A stretch of 64,000 nt of DNA from Candidatus Saccharimonadia bacterium (GTDB lineage: Bacteria > Patescibacteriota > Saccharimonadia > UBA4664), in assembly GCA_041743505.1 (NCBI GenBank), contig JBGTMQ010000019.1:6147-70146 (forward strand), read 5' to 3'. Below the pieces are notes generated by a model. That model had not been told where the DNA came from, ran no database searches, and worked only from the letters and a program-made list of their open reading frames with translations. The position numbers and the translations under genes were made by a program. Shown piece by piece: positions 1-42,847 of this stretch (its first letter is position 1; each line of letters starts with the position of its first letter).

Positions 1-1386
1 GGCTGGGCGTACAATGATCGAGTCAATAGCCCAATGATGAAAGAATGGCTCGGCAAAGTCGTAGGAGGTGAGGGCGAAGACTTAACCAGACACGACAAGT
101 GGCTTTGTATGATGCTGCCACGCCTTAAACTCCTCCGGGAACTATTGACTGAAGATGGCGCGATATTCATAAGTATTGATGACAATGAACAGCACAATCT
201 GCGAACCCTTATGGACGAAATCTTTGGAGACCAGAACTTCGTTGCTAGCATTGTTTGGCAAAAGAAGTACTCGCCCCAGAACGATGCACGGCATTTTTCG
301 GCAATGCATGAATACGTAGTGGCATACGCAAGAAGTATCGACAAATGGCAGAGAAATCTAATGCCAAGAACTGCAAAGCAGGATGATGCCTATAAAAACC
401 CCGATAATGATTCAAGAGGTCCGTGGAAGCCCAGTGACCTAACACGAGCCGAGCATCGTGATCGTGATTACTACGTCATAACCACACCGTCCGGAAAAGA
501 AGTACTCCCTGCTAAAGGCAGGAGCTGGAGCAGGCCTGTAGATGAAATAAAGCGACTACGCGAAGATAATCGTCTATGGTTCGGAACGAGGGGAGACTCA
601 ATACCGTCCCTTAAGAGATTCTTATCTGAAGTCAAGGAAGGTGTGGTGCCTGTCACGCTATGGTTCCAAGATGATGTCGGGAGCACTGACTCTGCAATGA
701 AAGAACTTAAGAGCATATTCGATGGGAACGGTCAGATTGAGACCCCGAAGCCTTCCACACTTATTCGTAGAGTTATACAGCTCGCTACAGATCCCAACGA
801 TATTATCCTAGATTCATTCGCTGGATCAGGCACAACAGCCCATGCGGTTTTAGCCGCAAATAAAGAGGATGGCGGAAATCGAAAGTTCGTTCTGGTTGAA
901 ATGGAAGATTATGCCGATAAGATCACCGCTGAACGGGTACGACGCGTCATAAAAGGAGTGCCCGATTCGCGTAACGATCTACTGAGACAGGGTCTGGGTG
1001 GCACGTTCAGCTACTTTACTCTCGGCAAGGCTATCGAAACCGAAAGCCTATTAAGTGGCAAACATTTACCGAGCTATGAAGAACTTGCTAGATATGTTTT
1101 CTACACCGCCACAGGCGAAGACTTTGACCCATTTAAGCTTAATGAAATTAAGCATTTTGCTGGATCAAGCAGCTATCATGATGTATACGTCTACTACAAA
1201 CCAGACCTCGAGTATCTCAAAAGCACAGCCTTGACGCTTGATGAAGCTCGCCGCTTACGCAAAGAAGTGGGAGATCGACCGCTACTGGTATTCGCACCAA
1301 CTAAGTACATCGAGCAAACCGAATTGGATAATCTCAAAATAAGCTTTTGCCAACTGCCCTTTGAGATATATAAATTGAAGGTATAA
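1..1386 (+). CDS. mod: Type III restriction-modification DNA methyltransferase (Mod), N-terminus likely truncated by window edge
   Basis: N6/N4 DNA-methylase domain with the AdoMet-binding motif DSFAGSGTTAHAV. The gene ends 6 nt before a Res-type helicase ORF, which is the classic Mod-Res order. The ORF abuts the window start. Confidence 0.8.
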   Translation, partial: GWAYNDRVNSPMMKEWLGKVVGGEGEDLTRHDKWLCMMLPRLKLLRELLTEDGAIFISIDDNEQHNLRTLMDEIFGDQNFVASIVWQKKYSPQNDARHFSAMHEYVVAYARSIDKWQRNLMPRTAKQDDAYKNPDNDSRGPWKPSDLTRAEHRDRDYYVITTPSGKEVLPAKGRSWSRPVDEIKRLREDNRLWFGTRGDSIPSLKRFLSEVKEGVVPVTLWFQDDVGSTDSAMKELKSIFDGNGQIETPKPSTLIRRVIQLATDPNDIILDSFAGSGTTAHAVLAANKEDGGNRKFVLVEMEDYADKITAERVRRVIKGVPDSRNDLLRQGLGGTFSYFTLGKAIETESLLSGKHLPSYEELARYVFYTATGEDFDPFKLNEIKHFAGSSSYHDVYVYYKPDLEYLKSTALTLDEARRLRKEVGDRPLLVFAPTKYIEQTELDNLKISFCQLPFEIYKLKV

Positions 1387-1392
1387 TCCGCT

Positions 1393-3918
1393 ATGGAGCT
1401 AAAAGAATACCAAAAGAAAGTTGTAAACCGCCTCAGCGAATACTTGCAGGCTCTTAGCACTGAAAAAAACCGCTATGAGCGGCTGAACGCCGTTGAGCCA
1501 GACCTTGCCGCCGAATTCAACTATCCCAAACGAGCTTGGGAGACAATCGGGCTACGCAATTACCACTCAGCGGTGAACGGCATCAACCAACCCTTGCCAC
1601 ACCTCTACTTCAAAGTGCCTACTGGCGGAGGTAAAACACTACTTGCATGTCACGCGGTTGATCTAATCCACAAGCTCTATTTACAAAAGCAGCACGGCCT
1701 TGTCCTGTGGATCGTACCAACCACACAGATTTACCGCCAAACTCTCAAAAGCCTGCGTGACCGTCACCATCCATACCGTCAAGTACTCGATGTATCTAGT
1801 GGTGGGCGCACAATGATCTTAGAAAAACTAGATCAATTTAACGTTGACGACGTAGCTAGTAACCTTTGCGTGCTCTTACTCATGTTGCCCTCAGCTTCTC
1901 GTCAGACCAAAGAAACGCTCAAAGTATTCAAGGACAATACCGGCTACACTAGCTTTTTTCCTGCCGAAGATGCGTACAAGCTCCAGAAAGAGCTTCTAGA
2001 CAAATATCCCAACTTAGACACCTTTAGCGAGAGTGATGGTCTTTTTGGGCACATACCAAAAACGTCACTTGGCAATGCCCTCCGAATGCTAAGGCCAATA
2101 ACAATCGTCGATGAAGGTCATAAGGCATATTCGGAGATGGCCCGAAGCACTATTTACGGCTTTAACCCCAGCTTTGTGCTTGAACTATCTGCAACGCCTC
2201 CCGAAAACACCAATCGCCTCGTCGCCATTACGGGCCGTGAGCTGAATGATGAGCAGATGATTAAGCTCGATCTACATCTGATTAATAAAAATACTTCTGA
2301 CTGGCAAGACACCATGAATGAAGCGGTTGCATGGCGGGCCGAACTTGAGCAAAAAGCCAAAGAGTACGAGCAAAACACTAATAACTACATCCGCCCAATC
2401 ATGCTCGTACAGGTTGAGAGAACTGGCAAAGATCAGCGAGACGGCAAGTTTATTCATGCCGAAGACATCCGCGAATACCTGATAAAGCAATGTATGATTC
2501 CGAATGAGCAAATCGCCGTCAAGTCTTCTGATAAAGACGAGATTGAGAATATAGACCTGTTAGAACGTGGCTGCCATATTCGCTTCATTATCACCAAACA
2601 GGCACTACAAGAGGGCTGGGATTGTCCTTTCGCCTATGTACTTACTGCACTTACTAAATCTCAATCCGAAACGGCCATGACACAACTTATTGGCCGTGTA
2701 TTGCGTCAGCCCTACGCCCGCAAGTCCGGCATAAAAGAACTTGACGAGTGTTACGTATACTCTTTCCAGCACGACACCGCAAAGCTCGTTGGTGGGATTA
2801 AAAAAAATCTAGAGGGCGAAGGCCTGGGTGATGTAATCGGCCGCATCAATGTTGAGTCAGATGGTGACGAGAATCCAGACTATGAACCAGAAAGAACCCT
2901 GCGCTACCGGAAGCAATTCAAGAAGTTTGAAGGCCGCGTATATTTGCCAGTATTCGCGATTGAATCAGAAAGCTCATGGCGTGAACTGAGCTATGAGACC
3001 GATCTACTTGGCCGGCTCGACTGGTCAAAGGTTGACCTGTCAGCTATAGACTCGCTCAGCCTAGAGCAGCGCACCGTAGATGATGATATTCGGGCCTTGG
3101 GGTATGGCGCTAGCGGGGAGCTAGACATGACAGCGCAGCAAGAGCGATCATTTGAGTCAGAACTGAGTGACGAATATGTGACACGCCAGATTATCGATAT
3201 CGTGCCTAACCCGTGGCTCGCATATGGTGTGGCGCGGGACTTTCTAATCAGACTTCAAAAACGCTATGACAAAGAAATTGTAGCTTCAAATTTAGTGTAC
3301 GCAGTCGAACGGCTTAAAAGTCTCTTATTTGAGCAACGCAATATACTATCTGAGCAAGTATTTCGCAAACTCCTAAAAGGAGGCACATTGCGCTTCTACT
3401 TATTGAAAGGCGCCAGTCATTCAATGATCCCTAGTAGTATCACTATGCAAACCAGACGACGCTTGACCCACGCGGACGGTGAGCAGATACAAGCCAGTCT
3501 GTTTGATTATATCCCAGCCGAGAGTATCAACGGACTAGAGGAAGAAGTGGCTTTATACCTGGATCGTCAGCAAAAGCTACTGTGGTGGTATCGCAATATG
3601 GCCAAAGCTGATTATCGCATTCAGGGTTGGAAACCCGGTCGGGTGTATCCGGACTTTATTACGGCCGCGAAAGCCGAGGACGAAACGACTTACGATAAAC
3701 TTTATGTCCTCGAAACCAAGGGCGAACATCTGTTGGGTAATGAAGACACAGAGTATAAGCGGCAGTTACTAGAACTTTGCAACGAGCAAGCGGTTGAGAA
3801 AAATTGGCAGGAGCTTGATCTTGGTTTTGGTGAGTCAGATTTTGTATTTCAGATGGTCAATGAAGATGGCTGGAAATCACAGCTTAGTGGTCTGCTGGCT
3901 AATAGCGATAAGGCCTAG
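1393..3918 (+). CDS. res: Type III restriction endonuclease Res subunit (SF2 helicase/nuclease)
   Basis: Walker A motif PTGGGKTLLA and DEGH box (IVDEGHKA). Length of 841 aa and position immediately after Mod. Confidence 0.8.
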   Translation: MELKEYQKKVVNRLSEYLQALSTEKNRYERLNAVEPDLAAEFNYPKRAWETIGLRNYHSAVNGINQPLPHLYFKVPTGGGKTLLACHAVDLIHKLYLQKQHGLVLWIVPTTQIYRQTLKSLRDRHHPYRQVLDVSSGGRTMILEKLDQFNVDDVASNLCVLLLMLPSASRQTKETLKVFKDNTGYTSFFPAEDAYKLQKELLDKYPNLDTFSESDGLFGHIPKTSLGNALRMLRPITIVDEGHKAYSEMARSTIYGFNPSFVLELSATPPENTNRLVAITGRELNDEQMIKLDLHLINKNTSDWQDTMNEAVAWRAELEQKAKEYEQNTNNYIRPIMLVQVERTGKDQRDGKFIHAEDIREYLIKQCMIPNEQIAVKSSDKDEIENIDLLERGCHIRFIITKQALQEGWDCPFAYVLTALTKSQSETAMTQLIGRVLRQPYARKSGIKELDECYVYSFQHDTAKLVGGIKKNLEGEGLGDVIGRINVESDGDENPDYEPERTLRYRKQFKKFEGRVYLPVFAIESESSWRELSYETDLLGRLDWSKVDLSAIDSLSLEQRTVDDDIRALGYGASGELDMTAQQERSFESELSDEYVTRQIIDIVPNPWLAYGVARDFLIRLQKRYDKEIVASNLVYAVERLKSLLFEQRNILSEQVFRKLLKGGTLRFYLLKGASHSMIPSSITMQTRRRLTHADGEQIQASLFDYIPAESINGLEEEVALYLDRQQKLLWWYRNMAKADYRIQGWKPGRVYPDFITAAKAEDETTYDKLYVLETKGEHLLGNEDTEYKRQLLELCNEQAVEKNWQELDLGFGESDFVFQMVNEDGWKSQLSGLLANSDKA

Positions 3919-7749: not shown

Positions 7750-8712
7750 TGTCAATATATCGTAATGGTTCAATAGCTTTGCACCAAGGTTGTGCTTAAA
7801 CTGTTGCCATGCCATATACCTCAAACCCCAATCTGGAACGAGTCCGCATGCAGGCGGTCAAGCTTGTAAGGGGTGGGCAAACCACCCGTGAAGTAGCCCG
7901 TCATTTGGGGTATTCTCATTCCTCGGTGGTGCGCTGGGTGCAGCGGGTAGAGAAAGAACGGCTACATGGCAATGGCGGCGTACCGACCCGTTCCTCGAAG
8001 CCTAAGTCGCATCCCCGTGCCCTCGAACCGGCAATTGTTCAGGCCATTGTCAATGAGCGTCTGAAATCCGGCCGCTGTGCCGAAGTCGTTTACGAGGATC
8101 TCAAAGAGCGAGGAGTCCAGGTTAGTTTGTCGAGTGTCAAACGCACTCTCGACCGACATGAGCTACTCAAGAAAAAATCAAAATGGAAGCGGATCCGACA
8201 ATCGTTACCAAGACCCGACATAACCGCTCCCGGAAGCCTTATTCAAATGGATACGGTTCATTTTGTCGACTGGTCTACCGGAAAACGATTCTATATTTAC
8301 ACCGTTATTGACCTGTATTCCCGCTGGGCATACGCCGAAGTCCACGACAACTTGAGTCAGGCGCTGAGTCTCAAAGTAGCCCTCCGGGCCCAGGTCAAAG
8401 CCGGTTTCGGATTCCAGATGATGCAAACGGACAACGGACCCGAATTCCAAAAATACTTTCATGACATGCTGGCTGCCAGAAAGATTGCCCTGAGGCATTC
8501 ACGGGTACGACAGAGCAACGACAATGCTCATGTGGAGCGGTTCAACCGCACCTTACAAGATGAGTGCGTGAGTTCGTATCCGCTACGGAGGAATGTGACT
8601 CAAAGACGACTAGATGAGTATCTGGATTACTACAATAATGGCCGTCGGCACATGGGAATTAACATGCGGAGACCGGCGGAAGTGGTGCAAAGCTATTGAA
8701 CGCTAAACGACA
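7750..8712 (+). mobile_element. IS481-family insertion sequence (about 963 bp)
   Basis: Single HTH+DDE (rve) transposase ORF. Terminal TGTC ends with a 19-nt perfect subterminal inverted repeat GTTCAATAGCTTTGCACCA (7773-7791, and reverse-complemented at 8682-8700). The right IR overlaps the transposase stop codon. Confidence 0.7.
7809..8699 (+). CDS. IS481-family transposase (HTH + integrase core/DDE)
   Basis: N-terminal HTH followed by an rve core (DTVHF..., TDNGPEF, ERFNRTLQDE). Confidence 0.8.
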   Translation: MPYTSNPNLERVRMQAVKLVRGGQTTREVARHLGYSHSSVVRWVQRVEKERLHGNGGVPTRSSKPKSHPRALEPAIVQAIVNERLKSGRCAEVVYEDLKERGVQVSLSSVKRTLDRHELLKKKSKWKRIRQSLPRPDITAPGSLIQMDTVHFVDWSTGKRFYIYTVIDLYSRWAYAEVHDNLSQALSLKVALRAQVKAGFGFQMMQTDNGPEFQKYFHDMLAARKIALRHSRVRQSNDNAHVERFNRTLQDECVSSYPLRRNVTQRRLDEYLDYYNNGRRHMGINMRRPAEVVQSY

Positions 8713-10818: not shown

Positions 10819-10926
10819 CATTATCACTCCAAATAGTAGGCCAACGGGATGCCCTAATAAATAACATAAATATTGTAAAATGTCCAATATAGTAGCCCCG
10901 TCTCAAGTTGAGTGACCCCTCAAATA

Positions 10927-10978
10927 AAAACCCACCGAAGCGAGATCACCAGTAGGTGAAATCTCGCCCCGGCGGGGG
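10927..10978 (-). terminator. Conserved family-B terminator repeat (copy 1)
   Basis: Same core as 13214-13268. Hairpin + TTTTTATTT on the minus strand, directly after the stop of 10982..11551. Confidence 0.65.
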
Positions 10979-10981
10979 TTA

Positions 10982-11551
10982 CTACGATCCTTTGAGGCGC
11001 TTCAGCCAGTAGGCAGCTCGGGTGGACTCATCCCGGTCACGGAGATTCTCGAGTGTGGCAATGACCATTGCCTGCTCCTCGGCAGTGAAAGCATGCCAGC
11101 GCACTGAGGCCAAGGTGGCAGAATTGTCTTGCTCGAGGCGCCAGGCGGCGTTTCGCCCCACTTTCTTGACCTCTGTCTTAGCGAACGAGTCCCAGAACTG
11201 GTGGTTGTCGTACAGCGTTACCATCTCAATGCCTCGTTCATCCCGGATAGAGGTGAGGTACATGCTTAGCACCTCGACCGTCCAGTCCTCCGGCGGCACC
11301 ACCGTCACGTAATCCGCCGGCCCGGGATTCTCGGCCGGCTCCTCAAGCCAGACGAAGCCTGCGGCTTCAAGGTCGGCCCGAGTGCCTCCAATAATGTGCA
11401 CTGGAATCTTGATCGCCCGGAGGTTGTCGTGCTCCACGTCGTGAGCCTGCAAGACACTGAAACCCTCGGCCAGGTGCATGGCACTATCGGGGTCGTTGCT
11501 GCTTCCAATTGCGCTCAACGCAACTTGGAACGGGCTGGGTGATGCGGTCAT
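10982..11551 (-). CDS. Hypothetical protein (189 aa)
   Basis: RBS AGAGGAGAAcccATG. Followed by a family-B conserved terminator. Confidence 0.55.
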   Translation of the reverse strand: MTASPSPFQVALSAIGSSNDPDSAMHLAEGFSVLQAHDVEHDNLRAIKIPVHIIGGTRADLEAAGFVWLEEPAENPGPADYVTVVPPEDWTVEVLSMYLTSIRDERGIEMVTLYDNHQFWDSFAKTEVKKVGRNAAWRLEQDNSATLASVRWHAFTAEEQAMVIATLENLRDRDESTRAAYWLKRLKGS

Positions 11552-11883
11552 GGGTTCTCCTCTTAGGAGTGTAGTTACTCGTGCATCATGTAGACACTTG
11601 CGTTCGGCGCCTTGGTCACGTTCTCAGTCATTGGACTCCATTTCTTCGAGGCTACGCCATGGACCGCCGCGATCGGCGTTCATTAGCAACGCCAACGTTG
11701 GCGCACTGGGTATGCGCCCACTGGCCAGATACAAACTCAAGGCTGGCCCGGCGCCGGCTTCAGGCTGCTGCTCAGGGGTCGGGTCTGCGGGCGTAGTGGC
11801 CCGCCTCTTCCATCGGCCTAACATTCCCAGCTCCAATCGCGTGGTTAATACCAGAGTTCGACTAGATCCACAGCCATCCTCTG

Positions 11884-12189: not shown

Positions 12190-12298
12190 TCTGGCTCCCT
12201 TCGGAAAGCTAGATGTCAAAGAAACCTCAATATAATACCATATTTAGGGAACAAAAGCAACATCAAATTCAATGAAGACATAAAATACTCGGCCAGAA

Positions 12299-12368
12299 GT
12301 GAAAACCCCGCTGGCTGCGAGGCTCACCCATACGGGTGGTCTCGCCCTGGCGGGGCAAAAAGCGGGGA
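12299..12368 (-). terminator. Conserved family-A intrinsic terminator repeat (copy 1)
   Basis: 50-nt core CCCCGCTGGCTGCGAGGCTCACCCATACGGGTGGTCTCGCCCTGGCGGGG, near-identical at 4 loci. On the minus strand the hairpin is followed by TTTTCAC. Confidence 0.7.
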
Positions 12369-12371
12369 CTG

Positions 12372-12836
12372 TTACTCCCCGAGTCGAGATTTCAGGCTAT
12401 GCCACGCCGTCGCGGCAACCTTGGCCCAGTGGTAAGCGGCCGCCGGTATGAGCTCCGTTGGCGTGGAGGGGTAGCAATCCATTCGCTCCTCCGCCCGGCG
12501 GCTGGCTTCAGCGAAGGTTAAACTCTCACCGGGCGCCAGTAACTCCAGTTGATCGAGGTAAAACATCTCAATTGTATCCTCGTACGTCTGGTATCCGAAC
12601 TGCCCTGCGCTGTGACATTCCCCCATCGTAGTGAACCGGCTCTGCAGCGCGTCACTGAAAGCCCTCGGCCGGGTCAGCTTGTCGTTCGGGTCGACCGGCT
12701 CAAAATCTGGGGTCACGTTCAGGAGGCGGTAGTACCGGTCTCCCTCAACCAAAGTAATTGTGAGGCTGCCGTCCGGGTTGACCTCAGCCGCCACCAACCG
12801 GATTACGTTCTGGGCATCAACTACTGAAACGGACAT
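12372..12836 (-). CDS. Hypothetical protein, paralog of 17852..18325
   Basis: RBS AGAGGAcaacATG. N-terminal about 50 aa (SLTITLVEGDRYYRLLNVTPDFEPV) is alignable with SVTITFLLDGRYYTAERIRPDFPAV of the paralog. Confidence 0.6.
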   Translation of the reverse strand: MSVSVVDAQNVIRLVAAEVNPDGSLTITLVEGDRYYRLLNVTPDFEPVDPNDKLTRPRAFSDALQSRFTTMGECHSAGQFGYQTYEDTIEMFYLDQLELLAPGESLTFAEASRRAEERMDCYPSTPTELIPAAAYHWAKVAATAWHSLKSRLGE

Positions 12837-13213
12837 GGTTGTCCTCTCGAGCATGCATCACTACAGATGCGAGCAAATGCGAACACATACATAATAACAT
12901 AAATCCTATGACTTTGCAAGCAAAATAGTGTAAAATGATGGATTGTACCACGTCGGCCACAGTCGTAACGGACACTTCACTTATCGTCAATCGAAACGCC
13001 CCGCACATTAGCGGGGCGTAGTGGTCTCGGCCTACTTGAACTCGGCCAGCCGTTAGAGAAACAACGTCAGCGCGCGGCCACCTCACGCCTAACGCTCAAA
13101 CCGGCCTGTCCGATAGATCTAGGACTTGGCAACGGATCACCTCCTTTCTCTTAATACAATCGCTATCTTATAGGGCCCCCGCCAAACGGTCAATGCCATC
13201 AGCACATGCCAAG

Positions 13214-14285: not shown

Positions 14286-14410
14286 AGCCATCCTTTCAGG
14301 GTACGAGCAGAGGTTTGCTAGCTTCCTGAGCTAGGCACAGGATTTTAAATCATAACACAAAAAATGAAAGTTGTCTACTATAGGCGAATAACAATCCAAT
14401 GTTGCCAAAA

Positions 14411-14466
14411 TAAAGGCCCCGCTGGCTGCGAGGCTCACCCATACGGGTGGTCTCGCCCTGGCGGGG
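14411..14466 (-). terminator. Conserved family-A terminator repeat (copy 2)
   Basis: Core identical to copy 1, immediately 3' of the gene 14467..15273. Confidence 0.7.
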
Positions 14467-15273
14467 CTAGGCAGGCTGAGCCCGGCTCTCATGTTCGAGC
14501 ATTATCGTCCCAGCCCGGATGAAACGGTCTGTGTAATTCGAGTCCGGATTGCTATCCTCGAAGGTGGCATGGCCGCTCGGAAATATGAATCCAAAGGCTT
14601 CATCACCACCCTCCTTGTCCGAAGGCTCGCTGGTGACTTCACCCTCGAACATCTTGCCAGACTGGCCGTTTTCCTCCCATTTCAACTCGCATGGACATAT
14701 CTTTGTGATACGGACAACGACTATCTTCGAGTAGGGATTGTCAGCCTCAGGCTCTGTCGTAAAGGTTACGACGCTACCAACACCCAGCGACTCGTAGGGT
14801 TCCGGGTACGTGGCCATGAAACGGCGCATGGAGAACATACCAATCGCTTCAGCTTCGGTAATCCGGAAACTTCTCCAGTACCAACTAGGATCGTACGTTG
14901 CATCCGGTATGCCCAGAGCTTCCCAATCCACGCGTGAAAGCCGTTTGAGGAAACCATCAATGAAGTCAACGTTTGGTCGTAAGGCATCAAATTCCGCCTC
15001 ACTCAGTTTGTGCCGGCTTGTCAGCAGGATCTTGCGCTCATGGCGAACAATCAAAACGAGGTCAATACGATCTTCGACGCGAACAATCTTACTGGTGAGC
15101 AGCCGGTTCAGGATAGCGACTTCGTCAGCAAAGATCTTGAGACATGATGTGAGCTCATCGCCTTTGAGATCTTTCAGGAGTTTGGCGTCCCTAACCACGT
15201 TTCGCTGCAGTGTATTTGCTAGCCAGGAAAGCTCTTCCGAATGAAGTCCGTAACCCTCTACCTCAGCGGACAT
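14467..15273 (-). CDS. Hypothetical protein (268 aa)
   Basis: ORF with an RBS at the internal Met (MSAEVEG). Extended -10 promoter upstream. Confidence 0.5.
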   Translation of the reverse strand: MSAEVEGYGLHSEELSWLANTLQRNVVRDAKLLKDLKGDELTSCLKIFADEVAILNRLLTSKIVRVEDRIDLVLIVRHERKILLTSRHKLSEAEFDALRPNVDFIDGFLKRLSRVDWEALGIPDATYDPSWYWRSFRITEAEAIGMFSMRRFMATYPEPYESLGVGSVVTFTTEPEADNPYSKIVVVRITKICPCELKWEENGQSGKMFEGEVTSEPSDKEGGDEAFGFIFPSGHATFEDSNPDSNYTDRFIRAGTIMLEHESRAQPA

Positions 15274-15370
15274 TACTTGCCCTTCTGTGAGAAAACAATC
15301 GAACATATATATAAAAACGCGAAACCAAAATAATTACAATGTGGGCCCGGCCAACGATCAGCGCCGCATA

Positions 15371-15403
15371 AAAATAAAGGCCCCGCTAAACTTCAGCGGG
15401 GCC
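15371..15403 (-). terminator. Family-C terminator (GGCCCCGCtaaacttcaGCGGGGCC)
   Basis: Near-identical hairpin also at 16075-16104. Preceded by an A-run (a T-run on the minus strand). Confidence 0.6.
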
Positions 15404-15433
15404 ATCAGCGGCTGTTGATAGGCAAACGTGGTG

Positions 15434-16003
15434 TCACGCCTTATCAGATTCCCATGGGCCGAACCACAGTCCAGTGGCGGCCAAGAGCGACCGGCGGGCC
15501 ATATCCCGGTCACTGGCCTGGTAGGCCGGACTGAGCGCGGCGTAGCGCAAGCGGGCCAATGCCCGCCAGCGTTGCACCTTTTCCGGATTCCACGCTAACA
15601 GCATATAGGAAACCCAGTGCGTGGTCTGCTCCCATTCCTGCCGCTCCATCGCCTCAAACCGCACCGGCCGGATCGTGGTCCGGCACTCGGTCTCGATGAT
15701 GTGTTGGGCAATCCGCGCCCAGCGTGTGCAATAGATCTCACGCTCATAAGGTGTCAATTCTTCGAAAGATTTGCGCATTAGGATGCAGTAGGCTGCATCC
15801 TCACTTGGGACAGCGTGCATCCAGGGCTCAAACATATCAATCCATTGTTCGTGTTCGAGGTCCCCAAGTAAATGCAGGAGCGGGAAGTCTGGGTCAAATG
15901 CCCGCAACTCCTCATCCCGCCGGTCATTACTGAGCGAGTCGAAGGCGAAAGTGGGCCGCCACTCGCCCATGTCAGCGTACGGGAAACTTGGGCGGTCAGT
16001 CAT
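15434..16003 (-). CDS. Hypothetical Trp-rich protein (189 aa)
   Basis: Long ORF flanked by a family-C terminator and an AT-rich promoter. Confidence 0.5.
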   Translation of the reverse strand: MTDRPSFPYADMGEWRPTFAFDSLSNDRRDEELRAFDPDFPLLHLLGDLEHEQWIDMFEPWMHAVPSEDAAYCILMRKSFEELTPYEREIYCTRWARIAQHIIETECRTTIRPVRFEAMERQEWEQTTHWVSYMLLAWNPEKVQRWRALARLRYAALSPAYQASDRDMARRSLLAATGLWFGPWESDKA

Positions 16004-16074
16004 CGTGGTCCAATCGGCCGAATTTTTGATCTAGGACCGCTATATAATACAATATTTAATTGACAATTGCAATA

Positions 16075-16104
16075 GAAAAACCCCGCCAAACTTCAGCGGG
16101 GCCA
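16075..16104 (-). terminator. Family-C terminator (copy 2)
   Basis: CCCCGCCaaacttcaGCGGGGCC + A/T runs. Confidence 0.6.
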
Positions 16105-16113
16105 GCTCATGGT

Positions 16114-17478
16114 CTAATTTCGAAGCTTGGTCCTGTGGCCTAAAGCCGGATTGGGCGCCTGACCACGCTGATGAGTCCGGACGTAGGTTTCGCCTTCAGA
16201 TAAGCTAATTCCTCGCTCCTCCCAAGCTAGCTGGCGCGCCCTTTCGGTCGCTGTGCACCCCGCCGGTAGCGGGCGGACGAAGCCGGTTACGGAGTGACGA
16301 GCCGTCGGCTCACGGTCCAAACGCTCCGTCTCGGCCATAGCATCCGCCATTTCTCGCTGCAGAGCGAGCCGTACGGCTGCTGGATCCCCGAGCACGCGCA
16401 GGCGGGGAAGCACCAGGTCGCGCAGACCGGCTCTCCATCGCTGCCTGTGCTCGTCACGTTCGCGGTGTCCCTTTGGCAGTACCGGCCAGGCCGGCACTGC
16501 CAAGCCAGGCGCTACGTACTGCGGTACAATCAAGTTATACAGCCTCAGTAGCTGAATAATTCGGAAGAGCGTGTAGGCTACAGTCCGGTCCGCCTGAACA
16601 AAGCATTCGCGCAGTGATACGGCGCCAATCCCAACATCAGTCGTAAACTCGCCGGCAACGCCAATGGCGGCCATCAGCTTACTCCGAAAGTCGAATTCAA
16701 CGCCGGCGTAGTCGAGGTTCTCAGCCCGGTGCGCCACCCTCGTTGGTTCAAGGTGCCCAATTTCGCTCCTTGCAGCCAAAATTGCCAACGCCAATGGCTT
16801 TGTCAACTCGAGACGGTCGTCGCTGTCTATGTCACGTACGACGTCATAGCCGTCCACGAAGACCCAGGCGTCCTCATTGCTATGCAAGATACCGTCTTGA
16901 AACAAACAGGGCTTCACGCCATACGCCCGGTGCTCCGCCAAGGCCGTCGCCAACTCGGAGATCACTCGCTCGCCGTCTTTGATGCCCACAGCAGCCAGCT
17001 GTTCGGCCGCTTCCTCGTCAGCCGGCATCTGCCGCTTCAGTAGGTGCACAGCGTAGTGGTGGGCCACGTAACTCTTGTAGAAGCTACCCGCCTTGAAGTA
17101 GAGCCAGCCGTGGAACTGTGACAGCCGGAGCGACTCCACGAACTGCCCTAGCTCTTTCAGGTACGACTCGTCCAGAGGTAACCGCACCGCGCCGAGCCGC
17201 GCCAGCGATACCGCCAGCATATTGCTAATAACTGACGCATGCTGGTAACCCACAACCTCCTGTTTGATCGTGTCGATCGTGTCCATAACATCCAGGAGGC
17301 GCTGGAGTTGGTTGCGAATCGGCCCGGCTATTTCGAACCAGCCGTATATCCGGTGAACCGCCGCGGCTATTTGCGCAGCCGATACGGCATCAGGCTGGCG
17401 CAGCAGCTTAGTAACCAGCAGCTCCAGCGAGGTGTCACGCACTCGTCTCGGTGCCTGGATAGGCCACGGGATAGTCAT
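16114..17478 (-). CDS. Hypothetical protein (about 454 aa), largest cassette gene
   Basis: RBS GGAAGAAGGtagccATG. Contains an Rx4H-like motif (GHRERDEHR), but no confident domain assignment. Confidence 0.5.
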   Translation of the reverse strand: MTIPWPIQAPRRVRDTSLELLVTKLLRQPDAVSAAQIAAAVHRIYGWFEIAGPIRNQLQRLLDVMDTIDTIKQEVVGYQHASVISNMLAVSLARLGAVRLPLDESYLKELGQFVESLRLSQFHGWLYFKAGSFYKSYVAHHYAVHLLKRQMPADEEAAEQLAAVGIKDGERVISELATALAEHRAYGVKPCLFQDGILHSNEDAWVFVDGYDVVRDIDSDDRLELTKPLALAILAARSEIGHLEPTRVAHRAENLDYAGVEFDFRSKLMAAIGVAGEFTTDVGIGAVSLRECFVQADRTVAYTLFRIIQLLRLYNLIVPQYVAPGLAVPAWPVLPKGHRERDEHRQRWRAGLRDLVLPRLRVLGDPAAVRLALQREMADAMAETERLDREPTARHSVTGFVRPLPAGCTATERARQLAWEERGISLSEGETYVRTHQRGQAPNPALGHRTKLRN

Positions 17479-17780
17479 GGCTACCTTCTTCCGCATCCGA
17501 TGTAAATGACCAGTAAACTATACTTCTATAGCATAAAATAAACAAAAAGTCCAAAAATAACTAGCCGGCCCCCAAAGCGGGAGCCGGCCATTGTCGCTGT
17601 GCAAGATTCAGGATAGGTCGCAGTAGGCGCTGTACTCATGAAGCACGTCGGGGCCCAGGTATGCCCGGACTGAGTTGCCCGAGGTGCGGCAGCCGGTGGC
17701 CACCGGGTCTTCAATCGCGTTGTGATAGTAGCCGGTGTTAGAACCGTCCGTATTGAAATAGACCTTGGTTAGGCCTGCAA

Positions 17781-17839
17781 AGTGAAAACCCCGCTGGCTG
17801 CGAGGCTCACCCATTCGGGTGGTGCTCGCCCTGGCGGGG
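17781..17839 (-). terminator. Conserved family-A terminator repeat (copy 3)
   Basis: Core is 48/50 identical to copies 1 and 2. Confidence 0.7.
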
Positions 17840-17851
17840 CGGTGTGGAAAT

Positions 17852-18325
17852 CTATTTTCCGGTGATGATCTTTTCGAGCCGCAGCCAGACCGTTGTGAAG
17901 ACCTTGAGGGCCTCGTAGTACGACCTGTTGGTCGGCTCCACATCGTCCAGCCTACAGCTGATGAGGTAAGCCTGGAAAGCCGGTCCAAACGTCTGATCGC
18001 GTTTTCTGAGGAGGTCTAGGATGAGTTTCAACTCGCAGCGCTCTTCAGGCAGGAAGTACCGCCGCGATACTCCGGTGTTCTCGACTTCGAGACGCCGGTC
18101 GTCCAGCCTGTCGCCTCCGGGGGAGTAGATGGAACCGGCAAACACCAGCTTGGCATCGTCGGGCACGGCAGGGAAGTCTGGACGGATGCGCTCGGCAGTG
18201 TAATACCTGCCGTCGAGCAAAAATGTGATGGTGACACTTCCGCCGTGAAGACTCAAATCCACACGCTGGGGCGTGAAACGGGCGTTCAGCTCAGCCATAC
18301 GGTCATCGGTAGTGCTGGCGGTCAT
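17852..18325 (-). CDS. Hypothetical protein, paralog of 12372..12836
   Basis: RBS GAGGAGtggtccaaATG. Shared N-terminal motif with 12372..12836. Confidence 0.6.
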   Translation of the reverse strand: MTASTTDDRMAELNARFTPQRVDLSLHGGSVTITFLLDGRYYTAERIRPDFPAVPDDAKLVFAGSIYSPGGDRLDDRRLEVENTGVSRRYFLPEERCELKLILDLLRKRDQTFGPAFQAYLISCRLDDVEPTNRSYYEALKVFTTVWLRLEKIITGK

Positions 18326-18601
18326 TTGGACCACTCCTCACTTGGGGCTAGGTCATCTTGGAGATGTTTAAGGTCCTGTTATCCGAACAGTAATATAATA
18401 ACACACAAGGCGTAAAAAGTCAAGGTGAAATTACTGACAGTCAATCGATATCGTCCTTAACTCTGCTTGCTCTTGATCTAGGCCACCTCAAATGAAGCCT
18501 ACCTGCCAGCACCCACCCCGCAGCCGAACCTGGTTTGCGGGGTGATTATTATTAAAAAGGCTCCATAAGTACAATCAAACTTCCTTTTCAGGGTGAGTTA
18601 G

Positions 18602-18630
18602 TTGACACAATGACAATCATATTATAGAAT
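18602..18630 (+). promoter_or_regulatory. Strong sigma70-type promoter (TTGACA-17-TAGAAT) driving an ORF-less transcript
   Basis: Perfect -35 TTGACA at 18602-18607, a 17-nt spacer, and TAGAAT at 18625-18630. Confidence 0.6.
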
Positions 18631-18636
18631 ACCAAA

Positions 18637-19355
18637 TGTTACTTGAAAGAATATTGTGTAGCGTTAATTGATCTTTTACTCAAAAAGCTTAGTTAACGCT
18701 ACACAAGTAGCGACAAACATGCACCAGGGCACTGGCGAAGCGCGCACTTGCCACCGCCTGCTGCATGAGTAAAAACGGTACTCCAGTCTGGCGGGACCCT
18801 CCGCACCTCCGCCTTCGGGCTGAGGTAAGTGCCGTTGCATATCGTACCTTGCTGAGAGGTGCGGTCAGTGCCTTGCGTGGTGCTGTCATACTCAGCCGGG
18901 CCAGGGGTTAGTCGCCTGTCCCGTTTGCTAAGAGCCGGAAACGACTGCTGTGCCGTGGTGCATTCCCACGGCTGACACTGATTCAGTGTTGCTCGCCCGT
19001 AAGCGGGTTGGAATGCCCATTGGGAACATGTCAGGAGGTAGCTCCTCCGCATGTGAGCCGCCCAAAGGCCTACGCTCAGTCTTAGGCAAACTGAGGCAGC
19101 ACAGCCCATCAAGGGCCTCCCCGCTGCACCAAGAGGGGATACTTCTCGGGTAAGGTTCTAGCGCCATTGCGCACCCTATAGAGCGGAACCGGGACGCAAC
19201 TCGGAACCGTGGGTACTCGCCAAGCCTCCCGCTAAGTCGGGGAACGAGCGATAGATGGCTGCAACTCTGTGTGTCCCGAGGACACAGAAGCTATCGAACA
19301 ATTACCTACGCCTACGGCATCTGCCGCCGGCCGGCCCCTTCGGGGGCCTTTTTTT
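18637..19355 (+). ncRNA. Candidate large structured non-coding RNA (about 720 nt) of unknown class
   Basis: Bounded by the promoter above and an intrinsic terminator (GGCCCCttcgGGGGCC + T7 at 19333-19355). About 60% GC. Numerous local hairpins (GGAGGtagctCCTCC, GCGCcattGCGC, CCCGtaagCGGG, CCCGctaagtCGGGG, 12-bp stem GTGTAGCGTTAA/TTAACGCTACAC). All six frames carry only junk ORFs rich in Cys, Trp and Arg. Confidence 0.5.
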
Positions 19356-19396
19356 GTCAAAATCATCGGAGCACTGACCCTGATCGCTTTGCACAA

Positions 19397-19594
19397 CTAC
19401 AAAGTTACCAGCCTCTTTGAGCTGCCTTGTAATAATACCGCCAGTCTTGACGCCACTAAATCGGCTATGAGCTGATGACCTTCATCATTGGGGTGGACAC
19501 TATCCGGCAATAACTCAGATTCTAATTCCGCCTTTGAAAATGGCTCAAATATATCAACAAATTCTAAGTTGTTGTATGAGCAAAAATTACCCAA
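19397..19594 (-). pseudogene. Remnant of a TesA-like SGNH/GDSL hydrolase (C-terminal block V only)
   Basis: LLPDSVHPNDEGHQLIADLVASRL matches GDSL block V (DGxHPN..A..IA). The upstream part of the gene is absent in all frames. Confidence 0.55.
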
Positions 19595-19662
19595 CGTATT
19601 GTCAAATTCTTTAATTCGCGCTATCGCAACTAAAATTCAGAGACAAATTCAGGCAGGTACGT

Positions 19663-20241
19663 TTACAGTCTGGCAACTACAACAACGATAAATATTCCTG
19701 CAGCATTCAACAAAAAGGTTACTACGAAAAATTGCCAGCGTCGTATTTTAGATAGCCCCAGCATACTTACTCCAATCTCATCAGGGAGCGGAGAGGCAAT
19801 AATAGCTGCTCCAATCACAGGTAGCGTCCAGGCAAATAGTGGAGTTTTAAAAAGTGTTCTTAGGTAAGGATGATTAATTTTACTAAACAATGGCTGAAGC
19901 TCGTCAAAAACTCTATCTTTCATAAAACGAAAAATAATGTAATCACCCACCATTGCTCCGAGGCCAGCAAGAAGTGCTACTTCAATAGGGTGTAGGCTGT
20001 CGGCGAGATGATATAGGACAACCGCCGCAGGAGCAACCGTAAAAGTAGAAACAAAAAATATTCCTGTAATGAAGGCACCGAGATAGCCCAGGTTACCAAT
20101 CTGGCCAATAATACTATCTACGAAAGGTGTCTGTGCAAGGATGAAAAACAAAACGAGACTTAGCAATAAAAAACATGTATTTTTATATCGCCACCGACGC
20201 CAACGTCTACGCATCTGTTTGTAATGCTTGTGTTTCGGCAT
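19663..20241 (-). CDS. Membrane protein, DedA/VTT-like (192 aa)
   Basis: Several TM helices with a basic N-terminus. Lies in an AT-rich patch (19360-20300). Confidence 0.4.
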   Translation of the reverse strand: MPKHKHYKQMRRRWRRWRYKNTCFLLLSLVLFFILAQTPFVDSIIGQIGNLGYLGAFITGIFFVSTFTVAPAAVVLYHLADSLHPIEVALLAGLGAMVGDYIIFRFMKDRVFDELQPLFSKINHPYLRTLFKTPLFAWTLPVIGAAIIASPLPDEIGVSMLGLSKIRRWQFFVVTFLLNAAGIFIVVVVARL

Positions 20242-20349
20242 TGTTTATGGAGTATCTCATAATGACGAGAAAAGAACATAATACAGAGGTCATTTCGCTT
20301 ATGCTTGGAGGGCCAGATCAGATTCGAAGTAACAATCACAAAACAAAGT

Positions 20350-20390
20350 GAAAACCCCGCTGGCTGCGAGGTTCGCTCATAGCTAGCGGG
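20350..20390 (-). terminator. Family-A terminator, truncated variant (copy 4)
   Basis: Shares AGTGAAAACCCCGCTGGCTGCGAGG with the other copies. The hairpin overlaps the stop codon of 20383..21162. Confidence 0.55.
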
Positions 20391-21162
20391 GCGGGTGGTC
20401 GGTCACGACAACAGGTTGAAGCTCAGAATGGCGTTCCATGAGCTCCTCGTACTGGCGATCAAGCCAATCCATCATGCTCTGGTCATGCCATTCCGCAAAC
20501 TCGCGGTCGGCAATGCGCCGGTAAATGGCGTTCTGCCGCTCAACCCATCGCAGGTAACGCCTGTAGCGTCGGCCTCGCGTAGGAATGGGATGACGCGGCC
20601 GCTCGACACCGAAGTGGTCGTACAGGATCACTAGGATGGACGGCACCGGCAACGCGTCTTCGAAATCATGTGGATACTCCTGCCCCTGCCAGAGCATTAC
20701 GCGCTGGAAATGCTGGACCGTACCCGTCGCAAGCCACTCGAAGAGCAGGGTGTCACACTCCGGACAGCGGTTACACTGAGCGCTGATCTGCTTGTACGGG
20801 ATGAAATGACCACAGTGGTCGCACTTGGCCACCAGCGGCAAGTACAGCACGTACTCGTCCGCCCAATTGAGCGGACTGTCAAAGCCGCCATCGTAAGAGT
20901 AGCCGTAGCTGCACAGCTCAGCGATGAGTTCATCCAGCGTCTGCTGGATAGGTGGCAGGTCAGGCCGGAAGTGTTCACTAATCATGATGTGAACATTGTC
21001 GTCCTCCACAGTGCTCCAGCGAACATGCCCAGTCGTAATGCGCAAACCTTTGCGCAGCAAAGCTGCAGCGCGTGCATGCTGCCTACGAGTAGGGCCGCTA
21101 GGACAGCGCAAGCGCTTCAGGGCCTTTTTCGCCTTACGGGGGAGCTTCTTGGTTGGGTCCAT
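20383..21162 (-). CDS. Hypothetical protein with Cys4 zinc ribbon (CDHCGH...CNRCPEC)
   Basis: RBS GAGTGAGGttcgtaATG. Basic N-terminus and a zinc-ribbon motif. Confidence 0.5.
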   Translation of the reverse strand: MDPTKKLPRKAKKALKRLRCPSGPTRRQHARAAALLRKGLRITTGHVRWSTVEDDNVHIMISEHFRPDLPPIQQTLDELIAELCSYGYSYDGGFDSPLNWADEYVLYLPLVAKCDHCGHFIPYKQISAQCNRCPECDTLLFEWLATGTVQHFQRVMLWQGQEYPHDFEDALPVPSILVILYDHFGVERPRHPIPTRGRRYRRYLRWVERQNAIYRRIADREFAEWHDQSMMDWLDRQYEELMERHSELQPVVVTDHPPR

Positions 21163-21242
21163 TACGAACCTCACTCTGTCGGTGGGAGATGGATTAGGTA
21201 CGAGACAATAATTATATTAACATAAAACACAAATAATTGCAA

Positions 21243-21318
21243 TGGTGGGCCCGGCTGGACTTGAACCAGCGACCAAGCGGTTATGAGCCGCCTGCTCTAA
21301 CCACTGAGCTACGGGCCC
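21243..21318 (-). tRNA. tRNA with CAT anticodon, Ile2 (lysidine)-like
   Basis: Cloverleaf: GGGCCCG acceptor stem, D-arm GCTCAGTGGTTAGAGC, anticodon loop CTCATAA, T-arm GGTTCAAGTCC, encoded CCA. Sequence closely resembles enterobacterial tRNA-Ile2 (ileX) as recalled from memory. Confidence 0.75.
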
Positions 21319-28856: not shown

Positions 28857-28931
<75 letters not shown>

Positions 28932-29060: not shown

Positions 29061-29489
29061 GTGTTCACAACAAAGTCAGTGCTGGAATTCGATCGGCATG
29101 AACTGATGGATCTTGTACATCAATCAGCCGCCTGCGTAATCGTGTTCTGCCAGCGGTCACTTGATGAGATGAGTCAGGATCCAATCGGCCAGGTACTCAA
29201 GGAGTACTTAGACTGCGGAGACCGCGTGCTAGCCGATAAGCTGTTCGCTCAGGTTAGCCTGATCTACGACTTCGCGAAGCTGGCTCTTGACGATAAGACC
29301 GGCGACTACCGCATCTACAATGAAGATGTGTTGATCATTACCATCGCGCTCCAGTATTTTCAGGGCTGGAAGACAGCCTACGTCGCCCCAATCGACCGGG
29401 ACCATGGTCATTGGGGCCGTGGGTCGATCGTCAACCAGCGGGATTGGACGGGTCTCAACAAGTTGCTCGTTCAAAAATTCACTAGGTAA
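29061..29489 (+). CDS. Hypothetical protein (142 aa)
   Basis: RBS GAGGAGtctcGTG. Followed by a family-D terminator at 29508-29550. Confidence 0.5.
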   Translation: MFTTKSVLEFDRHELMDLVHQSAACVIVFCQRSLDEMSQDPIGQVLKEYLDCGDRVLADKLFAQVSLIYDFAKLALDDKTGDYRIYNEDVLIITIALQYFQGWKTAYVAPIDRDHGHWGRGSIVNQRDWTGLNKLLVQKFTR

Positions 29490-29507
29490 CAATCCACAAC
29501 ACCTGCA

Positions 29508-29550
29508 TAAGGTGGAGCCCCGTCAAGTAGGACGGGGCTTTTACTTTTTA
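29508..29550 (+). terminator. Family-D conserved terminator (AAGGTGGAGCCCCG...CGGGGCTTTT) copy 1
   Basis: Hairpin + T-run. The AAGGTGGAGCCCCG lead-in is shared with copies at 30266-30307 and 31511-31550. Confidence 0.65.
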
Positions 29551-29662
29551 TGTCGGCCACCGCATAACAACATTGGACTTATTAGAGTTTATATGCTATA
29601 ATAATTAATCCATCTGGATAGCATAGTGCTCACTTTGAGCACTCGTACAGGAAGGAAAAATT

Positions 29663-29920
29663 GTGGCCGCCCTCGAGCGTGTCCTGCCCGATGCCACCGG
29701 CTTCACGCCCAACGGCTATGTTGATCCGTACCCTCACAGTGACCTCCAGCGTCCATGCACAGGACCGTGCTGTGAGCCCGAAGCATACCCGCAACCATAT
29801 CGCTGGTGGTGCCAAGGCGACAAATGCATGGCGGTTCTGCTGGAGCCGGGCGAGTGCATCAACTGCTACCCGCAGGACCACACCGTCACACGGCTGATGC
29901 CGATCCAGCACTCATGTTAG
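29663..29920 (+). CDS. Small Cys-rich protein (85 aa)
   Basis: RBS GGAAGGAaaaattGTG. 9 Cys residues (CTGPCCEPE...WWCQGDKCM...CINC). Confidence 0.45.
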   Translation: MAALERVLPDATGFTPNGYVDPYPHSDLQRPCTGPCCEPEAYPQPYRWWCQGDKCMAVLLEPGECINCYPQDHTVTRLMPIQHSC

Positions 29921-42729: not shown

Positions 42730-42847
42730 CACAGCACACCTTCCGCATCCAGTAGCAAAAATCACAACCACTAGTAAATCCCGGACCTCGTATTCGAGGT
42801 CCGGGATTTCACGTTTCTATATTTGTCTACCTAGACTCAGTGCGAAA

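Follow-up and report, generated by a model that had tools for sequence, protein, structure and literature searches.

For GOLLD and ROOL, two large noncoding RNAs (ncRNAs) of bacteria, prophages and the vicinity of tRNAs are typical locations. Large ncRNAs are uncommon in bacteria, and OLE, GOLLD, ROOL, and raiA, as new classes, each brought an unexpected RNA architecture to light (PMC12286853, which also gives structures of GOLLD and ROOL). Long GC-rich intergenic regions are an established enrichment criterion for structured ncRNAs (PMC8723152, PMC11109978). In the GC-rich intergenic region (GC-IGR) scheme, a motif with a single representative ranks as "unnamed" or as a "low-ranking candidate," however striking it may be (PMC11109978). 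Here, we describe a GC-rich stretch without recognizable genes in a Candidatus Saccharimonadia bacterium, located in a window of 64,000 nucleotides (nt) of contig JBGTMQ010000019.1. Positions 18602 to 19355 of this window very probably form a noncoding transcription unit on the plus strand, as judged from the sequence, and this unit probably gives rise to a functional RNA that belongs to a new family. An earlier reading made from the letters alone (here called the sequence-only reading) had proposed a novel large structured ncRNA at this position. Our more specific interpretation, for which the balance of evidence is close to even, is that about 18637 to 19355 encodes a stable, structured ncRNA of ~720 nt that is transcribed independently, is restricted to its lineage, represents a new family, and probably serves as a scaffold rather than as an antisense regulator.

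Transcription signals and coding potential

The candidate RNA is preceded by a promoter with a perfect consensus −35 hexamer (TTGACA, 18602 to 18607, plus strand), a 17-nt spacer, and a −10 hexamer that matches consensus at five of six positions (TAGAAT, 18625 to 18630). Promoter geometry would place the start of transcription at 18636 to 18638, which is 6 to 8 nt past the −10 hexamer. With 11 of 12 matches, this promoter was the top-ranked site between 15 and 22 kb in a consensus scan and one of the three best in the window. In total, three sites had no more than one mismatch to TTGACA-N17-TATAAT, compared to 0.15 expected from shuffled sequences (none of 100 shuffles reached three), and 16 sites had no more than two mismatches, compared to 2.9 expected. 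Near-consensus promoters were thus enriched 20-fold over chance. Most sites with up to two mismatches fell in gaps directly upstream of genes or tRNAs, including sites 12 to 20 nt upstream of tRNA-Met (28857) and tRNA-Lys (63833). Because near-consensus sites were enriched and mostly occupied such positions, the sigma-70 consensus appears to be in use in the host. The promoter of the candidate RNA is nearer to this consensus than the promoter-like sites preceding the tRNA genes of the window.

At the other end of the unit, a canonical intrinsic terminator is predicted at 19333 to 19355 on the plus strand, with a pairing probability (P) of 1.00. Its arms (GGCCCC at 19333 to 19338 and GGGGCC at 19343 to 19348) form six G-C pairs capped by a UUCG loop, and a run of seven T residues follows at 19349 to 19355. 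On the minus strand no T-run follows the stem, which makes the terminator unidirectional. Both the promoter and the terminator had been picked out in the sequence-only reading, and both are present as it described them. They share the plus strand and lie 700 nt apart, so that the unit has, in silico, the transcription signals of its own on one strand that are generally expected of an ncRNA gene. This arrangement supports a discrete promoter-to-terminator unit spanning 18602 to 19355. Since no plus-strand gene lies beyond the terminator, this is neither a leader nor a riboswitch.

Two further signals were found just upstream. A divergent promoter with 10 of 12 matches and a TG extension (TTGACT-17-TATTAT, 18395 to 18423, minus strand) is aimed at a gene encoding a 160-amino-acid (aa) protein. 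Because the two promoters point apart, the RNA and the 160-aa gene would be transcribed divergently from a 300-nt AT-rich spacer. Directly upstream of the RNA promoter lies a terminator-like hairpin (18517 to 18545, plus strand), in which CCCCGCA and TGCGGGG are separated by 13 nt and followed by TGATTATTATT. This hairpin is of the same sequence type as a terminator cassette repeated elsewhere in the window, and no plus-strand gene stands ahead of it. It may be a relic, or it may terminate a short transcript that is missing from the annotation.

The body of the unit, between its first hairpin and the terminator (18707 to 19332), measures 60.2% GC, in line with the 60% given in the sequence-only reading. 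This value is above all 28 intergenic gaps that were measured (mean, 47%; range, 32 to 58%) and in the same range as the four tRNAs of the window (56 to 65%). The contrast with AT-rich intergenic regions on which the earlier reading relied is therefore present in the gaps, but the genome overall is 54% GC and not AT-rich.

No sign of coding was detected in this body. Codon-position GC was flat (0.58 to 0.61) in all six frames of the locus, compared to about 0.39 to 0.49 at position 2 in real genes of the window and 0.66 to 0.73 at position 3 in those of high GC content. The power of 3-base periodicity in a sliding Fourier analysis averaged 0.23 across the body and reached a maximum of 0.64, versus a window median of 3.2. 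Positions 18451 to 19530 form the longest nonperiodic run in the window (1,080 nt), and among the other nonperiodic runs only one, an ordinary spacer of 42% GC, reaches 480 nt. Stop codons interrupt every frame. At least two kinds of stop occur in each, so neither an alternative genetic code nor any single stop reassignment opens a frame. The longest open reading frame (ORF) in the locus encodes 137 aa on the antisense strand (18699 to 19112); Pfam gave no match to it, and phmmer recovered no relative from 1.84 billion representative proteins. Comparisons of the locus by tblastx against the window and against all fetched loci revealed no paralog. The sequence-only reading had dismissed this same ORF as not credible and had held that a translated homolog would speak against an ncRNA; none was found.

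These results support a noncoding stretch, with the lack of an ORF, of codon periodicity, and of a protein homolog that is generally expected of an ncRNA gene. The leftover protein-family similarity or periodicity expected of a pseudogene was not seen, and a protein gene or pseudogene was rejected on the grounds of codon-position GC, Fourier periodicity, the stop census, Pfam, phmmer, and tblastx. The alternative of a pseudogene in decay, or of an mRNA that encodes at least one small protein, would find some encouragement in plus-strand ORFs of 48 aa (18765 to 18911), 67 aa (18950 to 19153), and 40 aa (19255 to 19377), and in a genuine pseudogene fragment only 40 nt away. However, frameshifted pseudogenes keep local periodicity, and no 180-nt window of this stretch has any. 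None of the plus-strand ORFs has a Shine-Dalgarno sequence at a useful distance, and the sole GGAGG precedes an AUG-UGA. Along with the protein searches and stop census, these points leave a pseudogene or small-protein mRNA very improbable.

A compositional feature of the body is the recurrence of CCUCC, the anti-Shine-Dalgarno core, which is present in five copies (z score, 3.9), for example at 18798 to 18813 and 19044 to 19050. The longer string CCUCCGC is present in three copies (z score, 8.6 versus dinucleotide shuffles, with many k-mers tested).

Predicted folding of the transcript

The 5′ region is dominated by an AT-rich hairpin (18654 to 18706, plus strand) with 24-nt arms, 23 of 24 positions paired, a 5-nt loop, and two G-U pairs (P of 0.96 to 0.97). 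Its core consists of the perfect 12-bp arms GTGTAGCGTTAA (18656 to 18667) and TTAACGCTACAC (18693 to 18704), which the sequence-only reading had listed as a 12-bp stem. Because the two G-U wobbles become A-C mismatches on the opposite strand, they point to a plus-strand hairpin at the RNA level.

About a dozen local hairpins of the plus strand are well defined (P of 0.8 to 1.0). For example, a 10-bp hairpin with three G-U pairs is predicted at 18841 to 18865 (P of 0.82), GACACUG-auu-CAGUGUU at 18974 to 18990 (P of 0.95), and a two-tier hairpin, ACAUGU..GGAGG-uagcu-CCUCC..GCAUGU, at 19026 to 19054 (P of 0.83 to 0.93), in which the GGAGG/CCUCC stem at 19034 to 19048 has a P of 0.83. An adjacent pair follows at 19079 to 19116 (19079 to 19097, P of 0.80; 19104 to 19116, P of 0.96). 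Within 19161 to 19204, GCGC-cauu-GCGC (19161 to 19172, P of 0.99) is accompanied by CCGGG..CUCGG (P of 0.86). At 19254 to 19295, a GAUGGCU/AGCUAUC stem (P of 0.99) encloses UGUGUCC-cga-GGACACA (P of 0.72). Weaker hairpins include CCCG-uaag-CGGG (P of 0.39) and CCCG-cuaagu-CGGGG (P of 0.35). All five hairpins quoted in the sequence-only reading exist, two of them only at P of 0.35 to 0.39.

The minimum free energy (MFE) of the plus strand was −308.7 kcal/mol, with a z score of −7.2 against 20 dinucleotide shuffles. The minus strand reached −292.8 kcal/mol (z score, −5.3), making the plus strand 16 kcal/mol more stable, and the fold contains 29 G-U pairs on the plus strand versus 23 on the minus strand. 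As controls, 719-nt windows taken every 2.6 kb of the same genome were folded on both strands (n = 48; 10 shuffles each). Control z scores averaged −1.8 (standard deviation [SD], 2.1), with 4 of 48 at or below −5. Expressed as energy in excess of shuffles, the RNA stood at −42 kcal/mol compared to a control mean of −11 kcal/mol (SD, 11.5; minimum, −37), exceeding all 48 controls by this measure and lying 2.7 background SDs out. Folding energy beyond the genomic background, a general expectation for an ncRNA gene, was thus found with moderate support. The folding signal is genuine, though of moderate strength, and lies in the tail of the genomic background rather than outside it.

Among the controls, low z scores were recorded at 42100 to 42818 (plus strand, −8.6), at 10900 to 11618 (plus strand, −6.0), and on both strands of 29100 to 29818 (−5 and −6), just after the tRNA-Met at 28857 to 28931. 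With 10 shuffles per control, these values may be noise.

Known families, relatives, and genomic setting

The sequence-only reading had noticed no hallmarks of RNase P RNA, transfer-messenger RNA (tmRNA), 6S RNA, signal recognition particle (SRP) RNA, or group II introns, and had named an Rfam scan as the proper check. The scans bore this out. A cmscan search of the whole window against 4,227 Rfam 15 families at gathering thresholds returned four tRNAs and nothing else, and a permissive search of 18200 to 19700 (E ≤ 10) returned microRNA-hairpin and terminator noise far under gathering scores. ARAGORN likewise reported four tRNAs and no tmRNA in the window, and with no Rfam match either, tmRNA, which is recognized by a tRNA-like domain (T-arm and CCA end) and a tag reading frame, was rejected. 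Group I and group II introns, which are defined by a catalytic core (P3 to P9, or domain V with a GUGYG 5′ end) and by insertion into a host gene, were rejected because no match to Intron_gpI, Intron_gpII, or group-II-D1D4 was obtained at E ≤ 10 and no exon (tRNA, rRNA, or ORF) flanks the unit. GOLLD, ROOL, OLE, raiA, and HEARO gave no covariance-model match at the same threshold.

RNase P RNA required a closer comparison. Helix P4 of this RNA is built from two distant conserved strands, GGAAAGUCC... and ACAGAA..GGCUUA, and a string in the candidate RNA, ACAGAAGCUAUCG, superficially resembles the 3′ strand. The ACAGAA segment pairs in the local hairpin at 19254 to 19295 (P of 0.99) and not as a P4 helix. 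No 5′ P4 strand (GGAAAGUCC) and no covariance-model match were found, and RNase P RNA was rejected. By these models, the candidate is not a detectable member of the RNase P, tmRNA, SRP, 6S, group I or II intron, OLE, GOLLD, ROOL, raiA, or HEARO families.

The unit could also belong, as a strongly diverged member, to a known large family (RNase P RNA, tmRNA, a group I or II intron, OLE, GOLLD, ROOL, raiA, or HEARO). Its size, its GC content, and the P4-like string would be compatible with this, and introns of Patescibacteria are known to escape standard annotation (PMC13011429). Against such a relationship, 4,227 families yielded only noise even at E ≤ 10, ARAGORN found no tmRNA, the P4-like segment is committed to a local hairpin, and neither tRNA halves nor rRNA lie beside the unit. 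We consider it extremely improbable. A pseudogene, a small-ORF mRNA, and a divergent known family, even taken together, claim only a small share of the probability.

The search for relatives and parts of the folding analysis weigh against a functional RNA of a new family. No homolog of the RNA was found by any route searched, including phage, plasmid, and viral collections. Searches by blastn against phage and plasmid records gave no match, and when viral contigs were scanned with four 19- or 20-mers, three scans were empty and one gave a single match (L042) without extended similarity, which was attributed to chance. The only other copies were in two Logan assemblies (SRR28170470 and SRR28170471; L001 and L002) and were 100% identical. 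The candidate RNA is thus a singleton.

Synteny walks that started from the 160-aa, 192-aa, 460-aa, and bactofilin neighbors and covered 35 loci of other organisms pointed the same way. Among 5.8 billion clusters, the divergently oriented 160-aa protein was matched by only two relatives (identities of 62% and 54%), whose contigs carry coding genes or too little sequence at the position of the RNA and gave no nhmmer match. For the 192-aa membrane protein, JGI metagenomes yielded 32 relatives (34 to 73% identity); their loci share no other gene with the window and gave no nhmmer match to the RNA. The single relative of the 460-aa protein (51% identity) resides in an unrelated YcaO/nitroreductase neighborhood that carries no RNA. 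When 185,579 species genomes were queried with the bactofilin, only one Falkowbacteria metagenome-assembled genome matched (39% identity). The nearest relatives of the neighboring genes come from samples SRR25419751, JGI 3300037742, JGI 3300005335/ERZ27251686, and SRR5248464. In sum, relatives of the neighboring proteins (39 to 70% identity) sit among wholly different neighbors without an nhmmer match to the RNA, and because they occur without it, no partner protein is indicated. The RNA seems to be restricted to the host lineage.

From the folding analysis, the control window at 42100, inside the protein-coding FemAB gene, had a z score below the −7.2 of the RNA. The long-range helices of the MFE fold are poorly determined (P of 0.04 to 0.2), so that a single sequence does not allow any claim to a global architecture. 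The dense structure described in the sequence-only reading has moderate support, while the promoter, the terminator, and the GC-rich noncoding character go beyond chance. Its proposal of a novel large structured ncRNA is partly supported: it stands as far as a discrete, noncoding unit without an Rfam family or protein match is concerned, whereas a structured RNA with a defined global fold remains a proposal.

The genomic setting is a further point on this side, because nonfunctional acquired DNA accumulates in mosaic blocks of this kind. The window is chromosomal, carrying genes for FtsH, a TilS-like protein, MurJ, a Mur ligase, FemAB, LepA, and malic enzyme. A block of minus-strand ORFan genes, each with its own terminator, extends from about 8.7 to 21.2 kb and includes the remnant of a gene and a probably acquired patch of low GC content. 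With the exception of one DUF2807/DUF4097 protein, genes of the block had no match in Pfam, NCBIfam, PHROG, or PADLOC, and the PADLOC and PHROG scans revealed no defense-island or prophage context. Upstream of the block are a type III restriction-modification system (DNA methylase and ResIII helicase, 34 to 3918) and an IS481/IS3-like rve transposase (7809 to 8699). An AlphaFold model of the 460-aa neighbor was unusable (mean predicted local distance difference test [pLDDT] score, 38.5).

The gene remnant is a 65-aa ORF (19397 to 19594, minus strand) that converges on the RNA terminator from 40 nt away. It represents the C-terminal part of a GDSL/SGNH hydrolase, contains a DSVHPNDEGH block, and matches positions 138 to 178 of the 178-position Pfam model PF13472 with an E value of 2.3e-5, under the gathering score. 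Because the N-terminal two-thirds is missing, the ORF is a truncated pseudogene. Together with the 192-aa gene, it forms a patch of 40 to 42% GC (19360 to 20380) between neighbors of 58 to 60% GC. Homologs of the 192-aa protein (50 to 70% identity) are on contigs of 37 to 49% GC without synteny, and for this reason the patch was probably acquired recently from a relative of lower GC content.

A module of ~70 nt with several hairpins ending in a terminator (consensus GCCCCGCCAGGGCGAG-ACCACCCGTATGGGTGAGCCTCGCAGCCAGCGGGGTTTTCACTTTG) is found downstream of several ORFan genes, at 17778 to 17851, 12297 to 12371, 14406 to 14468, and 20344 to 20382, all on the minus strand. It also follows a homologous gene in a different organism (L003, 2528 to 2601) and could be a 3′ cassette that is mobile or has been duplicated. 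The 160-aa ORFan proteins encoded at 12372 to 12854 and 17852 to 18334 (both minus strand) are paralogs by tblastx.

These surroundings bear most directly on the possibility that the stretch is nonfunctional DNA, left over from horizontal acquisition or rearrangement in an ORFan block that changes fast. It would by chance have kept, or have come to lie between, a promoter and a terminator, and any transcript of it would be junk. The RNA is a singleton for which all homolog searches came back empty, its global fold is poorly defined, some control windows have similar z scores, and the GDSL remnant, the 40 to 42% GC patch, the repeated terminator cassette, and an att-like repeat mark the neighborhood as a mosaic. 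However, spacers in this window drift to 32 to 58% GC, and 630 nt at 60% GC without periodicity is unlike decaying coding or spacer DNA. The promoter, among the three best in 64 kb, is properly paired with a strong unidirectional terminator, and the energy excess of the RNA is the largest of all windows tested. On this evidence nonfunctional DNA is rather unlikely, although it is the chief rival of the reading that we favor.

The att-like repeat raises a different possibility. A 25-nt direct repeat, identical at 23 of 25 positions, occurs at 15328 to 15351 and 21231 to 21255 and brackets 5.9 kb that includes the RNA and genes for 189-, 460-, 160-, 192-, and 263-aa proteins. The repeat comprises the 3′ end of a tRNA-Met gene (21243 to 21318, minus strand) and about 12 nt of its downstream flank, and in this resembles an attL/attR pair. 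It hints at an integrated element, with the qualification that no integrase was recognized and that, at an E value of 0.1 within the window, the repeat is statistically marginal. The RNA could then serve a ~5.9-kb element (15352 to 21230) integrated at tRNA-Met, either as a primer or copy-number RNA like ColE1 RNA II or as a phage RNA like GOLLD or ROOL, for which tRNA-proximal and prophage locations are typical.

Besides the bracketing repeat, an element-borne RNA would fit the ORFan character of the bracketed genes, which, except for the 192-aa gene, are all ORFans without a Pfam, NCBIfam, PHROG, or PADLOC match. However, the repeat may itself be what is left of a tRNA, the scans recognized no integrase, replicase, or phage gene, and the neighboring proteins have no relatives in 2.9 million viral contigs. 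The GOLLD and ROOL models gave no match, and a terminator ends the unit, unlike RNA II-type primers. As for the tRNA-proximal or prophage location of GOLLD and ROOL, a tRNA-Met lies at 1.9 kb and the att-like repeat surrounds the unit, but no phage gene and no viral relatives of its neighbors were found. We regard an element-borne role as quite unlikely.

Proposed function and comparison with known systems

Under the reading that we favor, a stable structured ncRNA of the host lineage, the near-consensus sigma-70 promoter would start transcription at about 18637. The first 70 nt would form the long AT-rich hairpin, predicted with high probability, which could act as a 5′ stabilizer or as an RNase III-type processing site. 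The 630-nt body, with its tRNA-like GC content, would fold into many hairpins, the local ones being those predicted above, and the UUCG-capped GC hairpin with its U7 tract is predicted to end the transcript ~40 nt short of the stop codon of the gene remnant that converges on it. The step we hold least firmly is the last, in which the RNA would be a stable structural or scaffold RNA, either as the core of a ribonucleoprotein (RNP) or in an RNA-only assembly like those of OLE, ROOL, and GOLLD.

A scaffold role is favored over a base-pairing regulator or a cis-regulatory leader because the RNA is noncoding, GC-rich among AT-rich spacers, strongly promoted, and without an antisense target. Among the 59 genes of the window that were tested, no translation-initiation region showed better pairing to the RNA than to shuffled versions, and no extended complementarity exists between the RNA and other parts of the window. 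A trans-antisense regulator therefore had no support within the 64 kb. Internal repeats, guide-like matches, and template repeat/variable repeat (TR/VR) pairs in the style of diversity-generating retroelements were also considered and rejected, with none longer than 14 nt, and no reverse transcriptase, Cas, or TnpB-like gene was present among 38 ORFs scanned.

A more far-reaching version of this reading, which we put forward tentatively and consider doubtful, is that the RNA is the founding member of a new class, a large (~0.7-kb), highly expressed structural RNA of an ultra-small bacterium of the candidate phyla radiation (CPR) type, with a standing like that of OLE, ROOL, or GOLLD and possibly forming an RNA-only assembly or RNP core. 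If so, the class has been invisible to comparative pipelines, because the lineage is hardly sampled. In a streamlined genome, a noncoding transcript that takes up 0.7 kb and is driven by one of the strongest promoters would be expected to be needed. If the RNA is real, its fold would be new and worth solving, and it might open a way into the biology of a lineage that has barely been sampled; the practical limit is its singleton status.

Compared to known systems, the RNA shares selected traits with each. RNase P RNA is, as is proposed for the candidate, stable, GC-rich, independently transcribed, and several hundred nucleotides long, and short strings of the candidate (GGUGCGGU... and ACAGAA...) resemble its conserved segments; the candidate differs in lacking the 5′ P4 strand GGAAAGUCC and a covariance-model match and in being about twice as long. 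ColE1-type RNA II, which the candidate may resemble, is a strongly promoted, highly folded, noncoding transcript of 0.5 to 0.7 kb on a mobile replicon. In contrast, the candidate ends at an intrinsic terminator, no origin, antisense RNA I promoter, or plasmid genes accompany it, and its status as part of an element hangs on a single 25-nt repeat.

Candidates from the GC-IGR and DIMPL searches (PMC11109978, PMC8723152) are comparable in being long intergenic regions with ncRNA-like GC content, and those ranked "unnamed" or "low-ranking" are comparable in having fewer than five representatives and no consensus model; with its single representative, the candidate would itself take one of these two ranks. 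The RNA described here is far longer than most of them and has an unusually clear promoter and terminator, while its contrast with the surroundings (60% versus 47% GC, in a host of 54% GC) is smaller than in the AT-rich genomes used by the pipeline.

OLE, GOLLD, ROOL, and raiA have hundreds of covarying representatives and covariance models, whereas the candidate is one sequence that fits none of those models even at E ≤ 10. It also differs from these families in that its predicted fold yielded no ornate multijunction architecture and no OLE-associated proteins or prophage genes lie nearby. The likeness is in size (0.6 to 0.8 kb), in noncoding character, in GC content above the surroundings, and in the possession of a promoter and terminator of its own. 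Its position, 1.9 kb from a tRNA gene (tRNA-Met) in a variable and possibly element-derived block, may also resemble the setting of GOLLD and ROOL.

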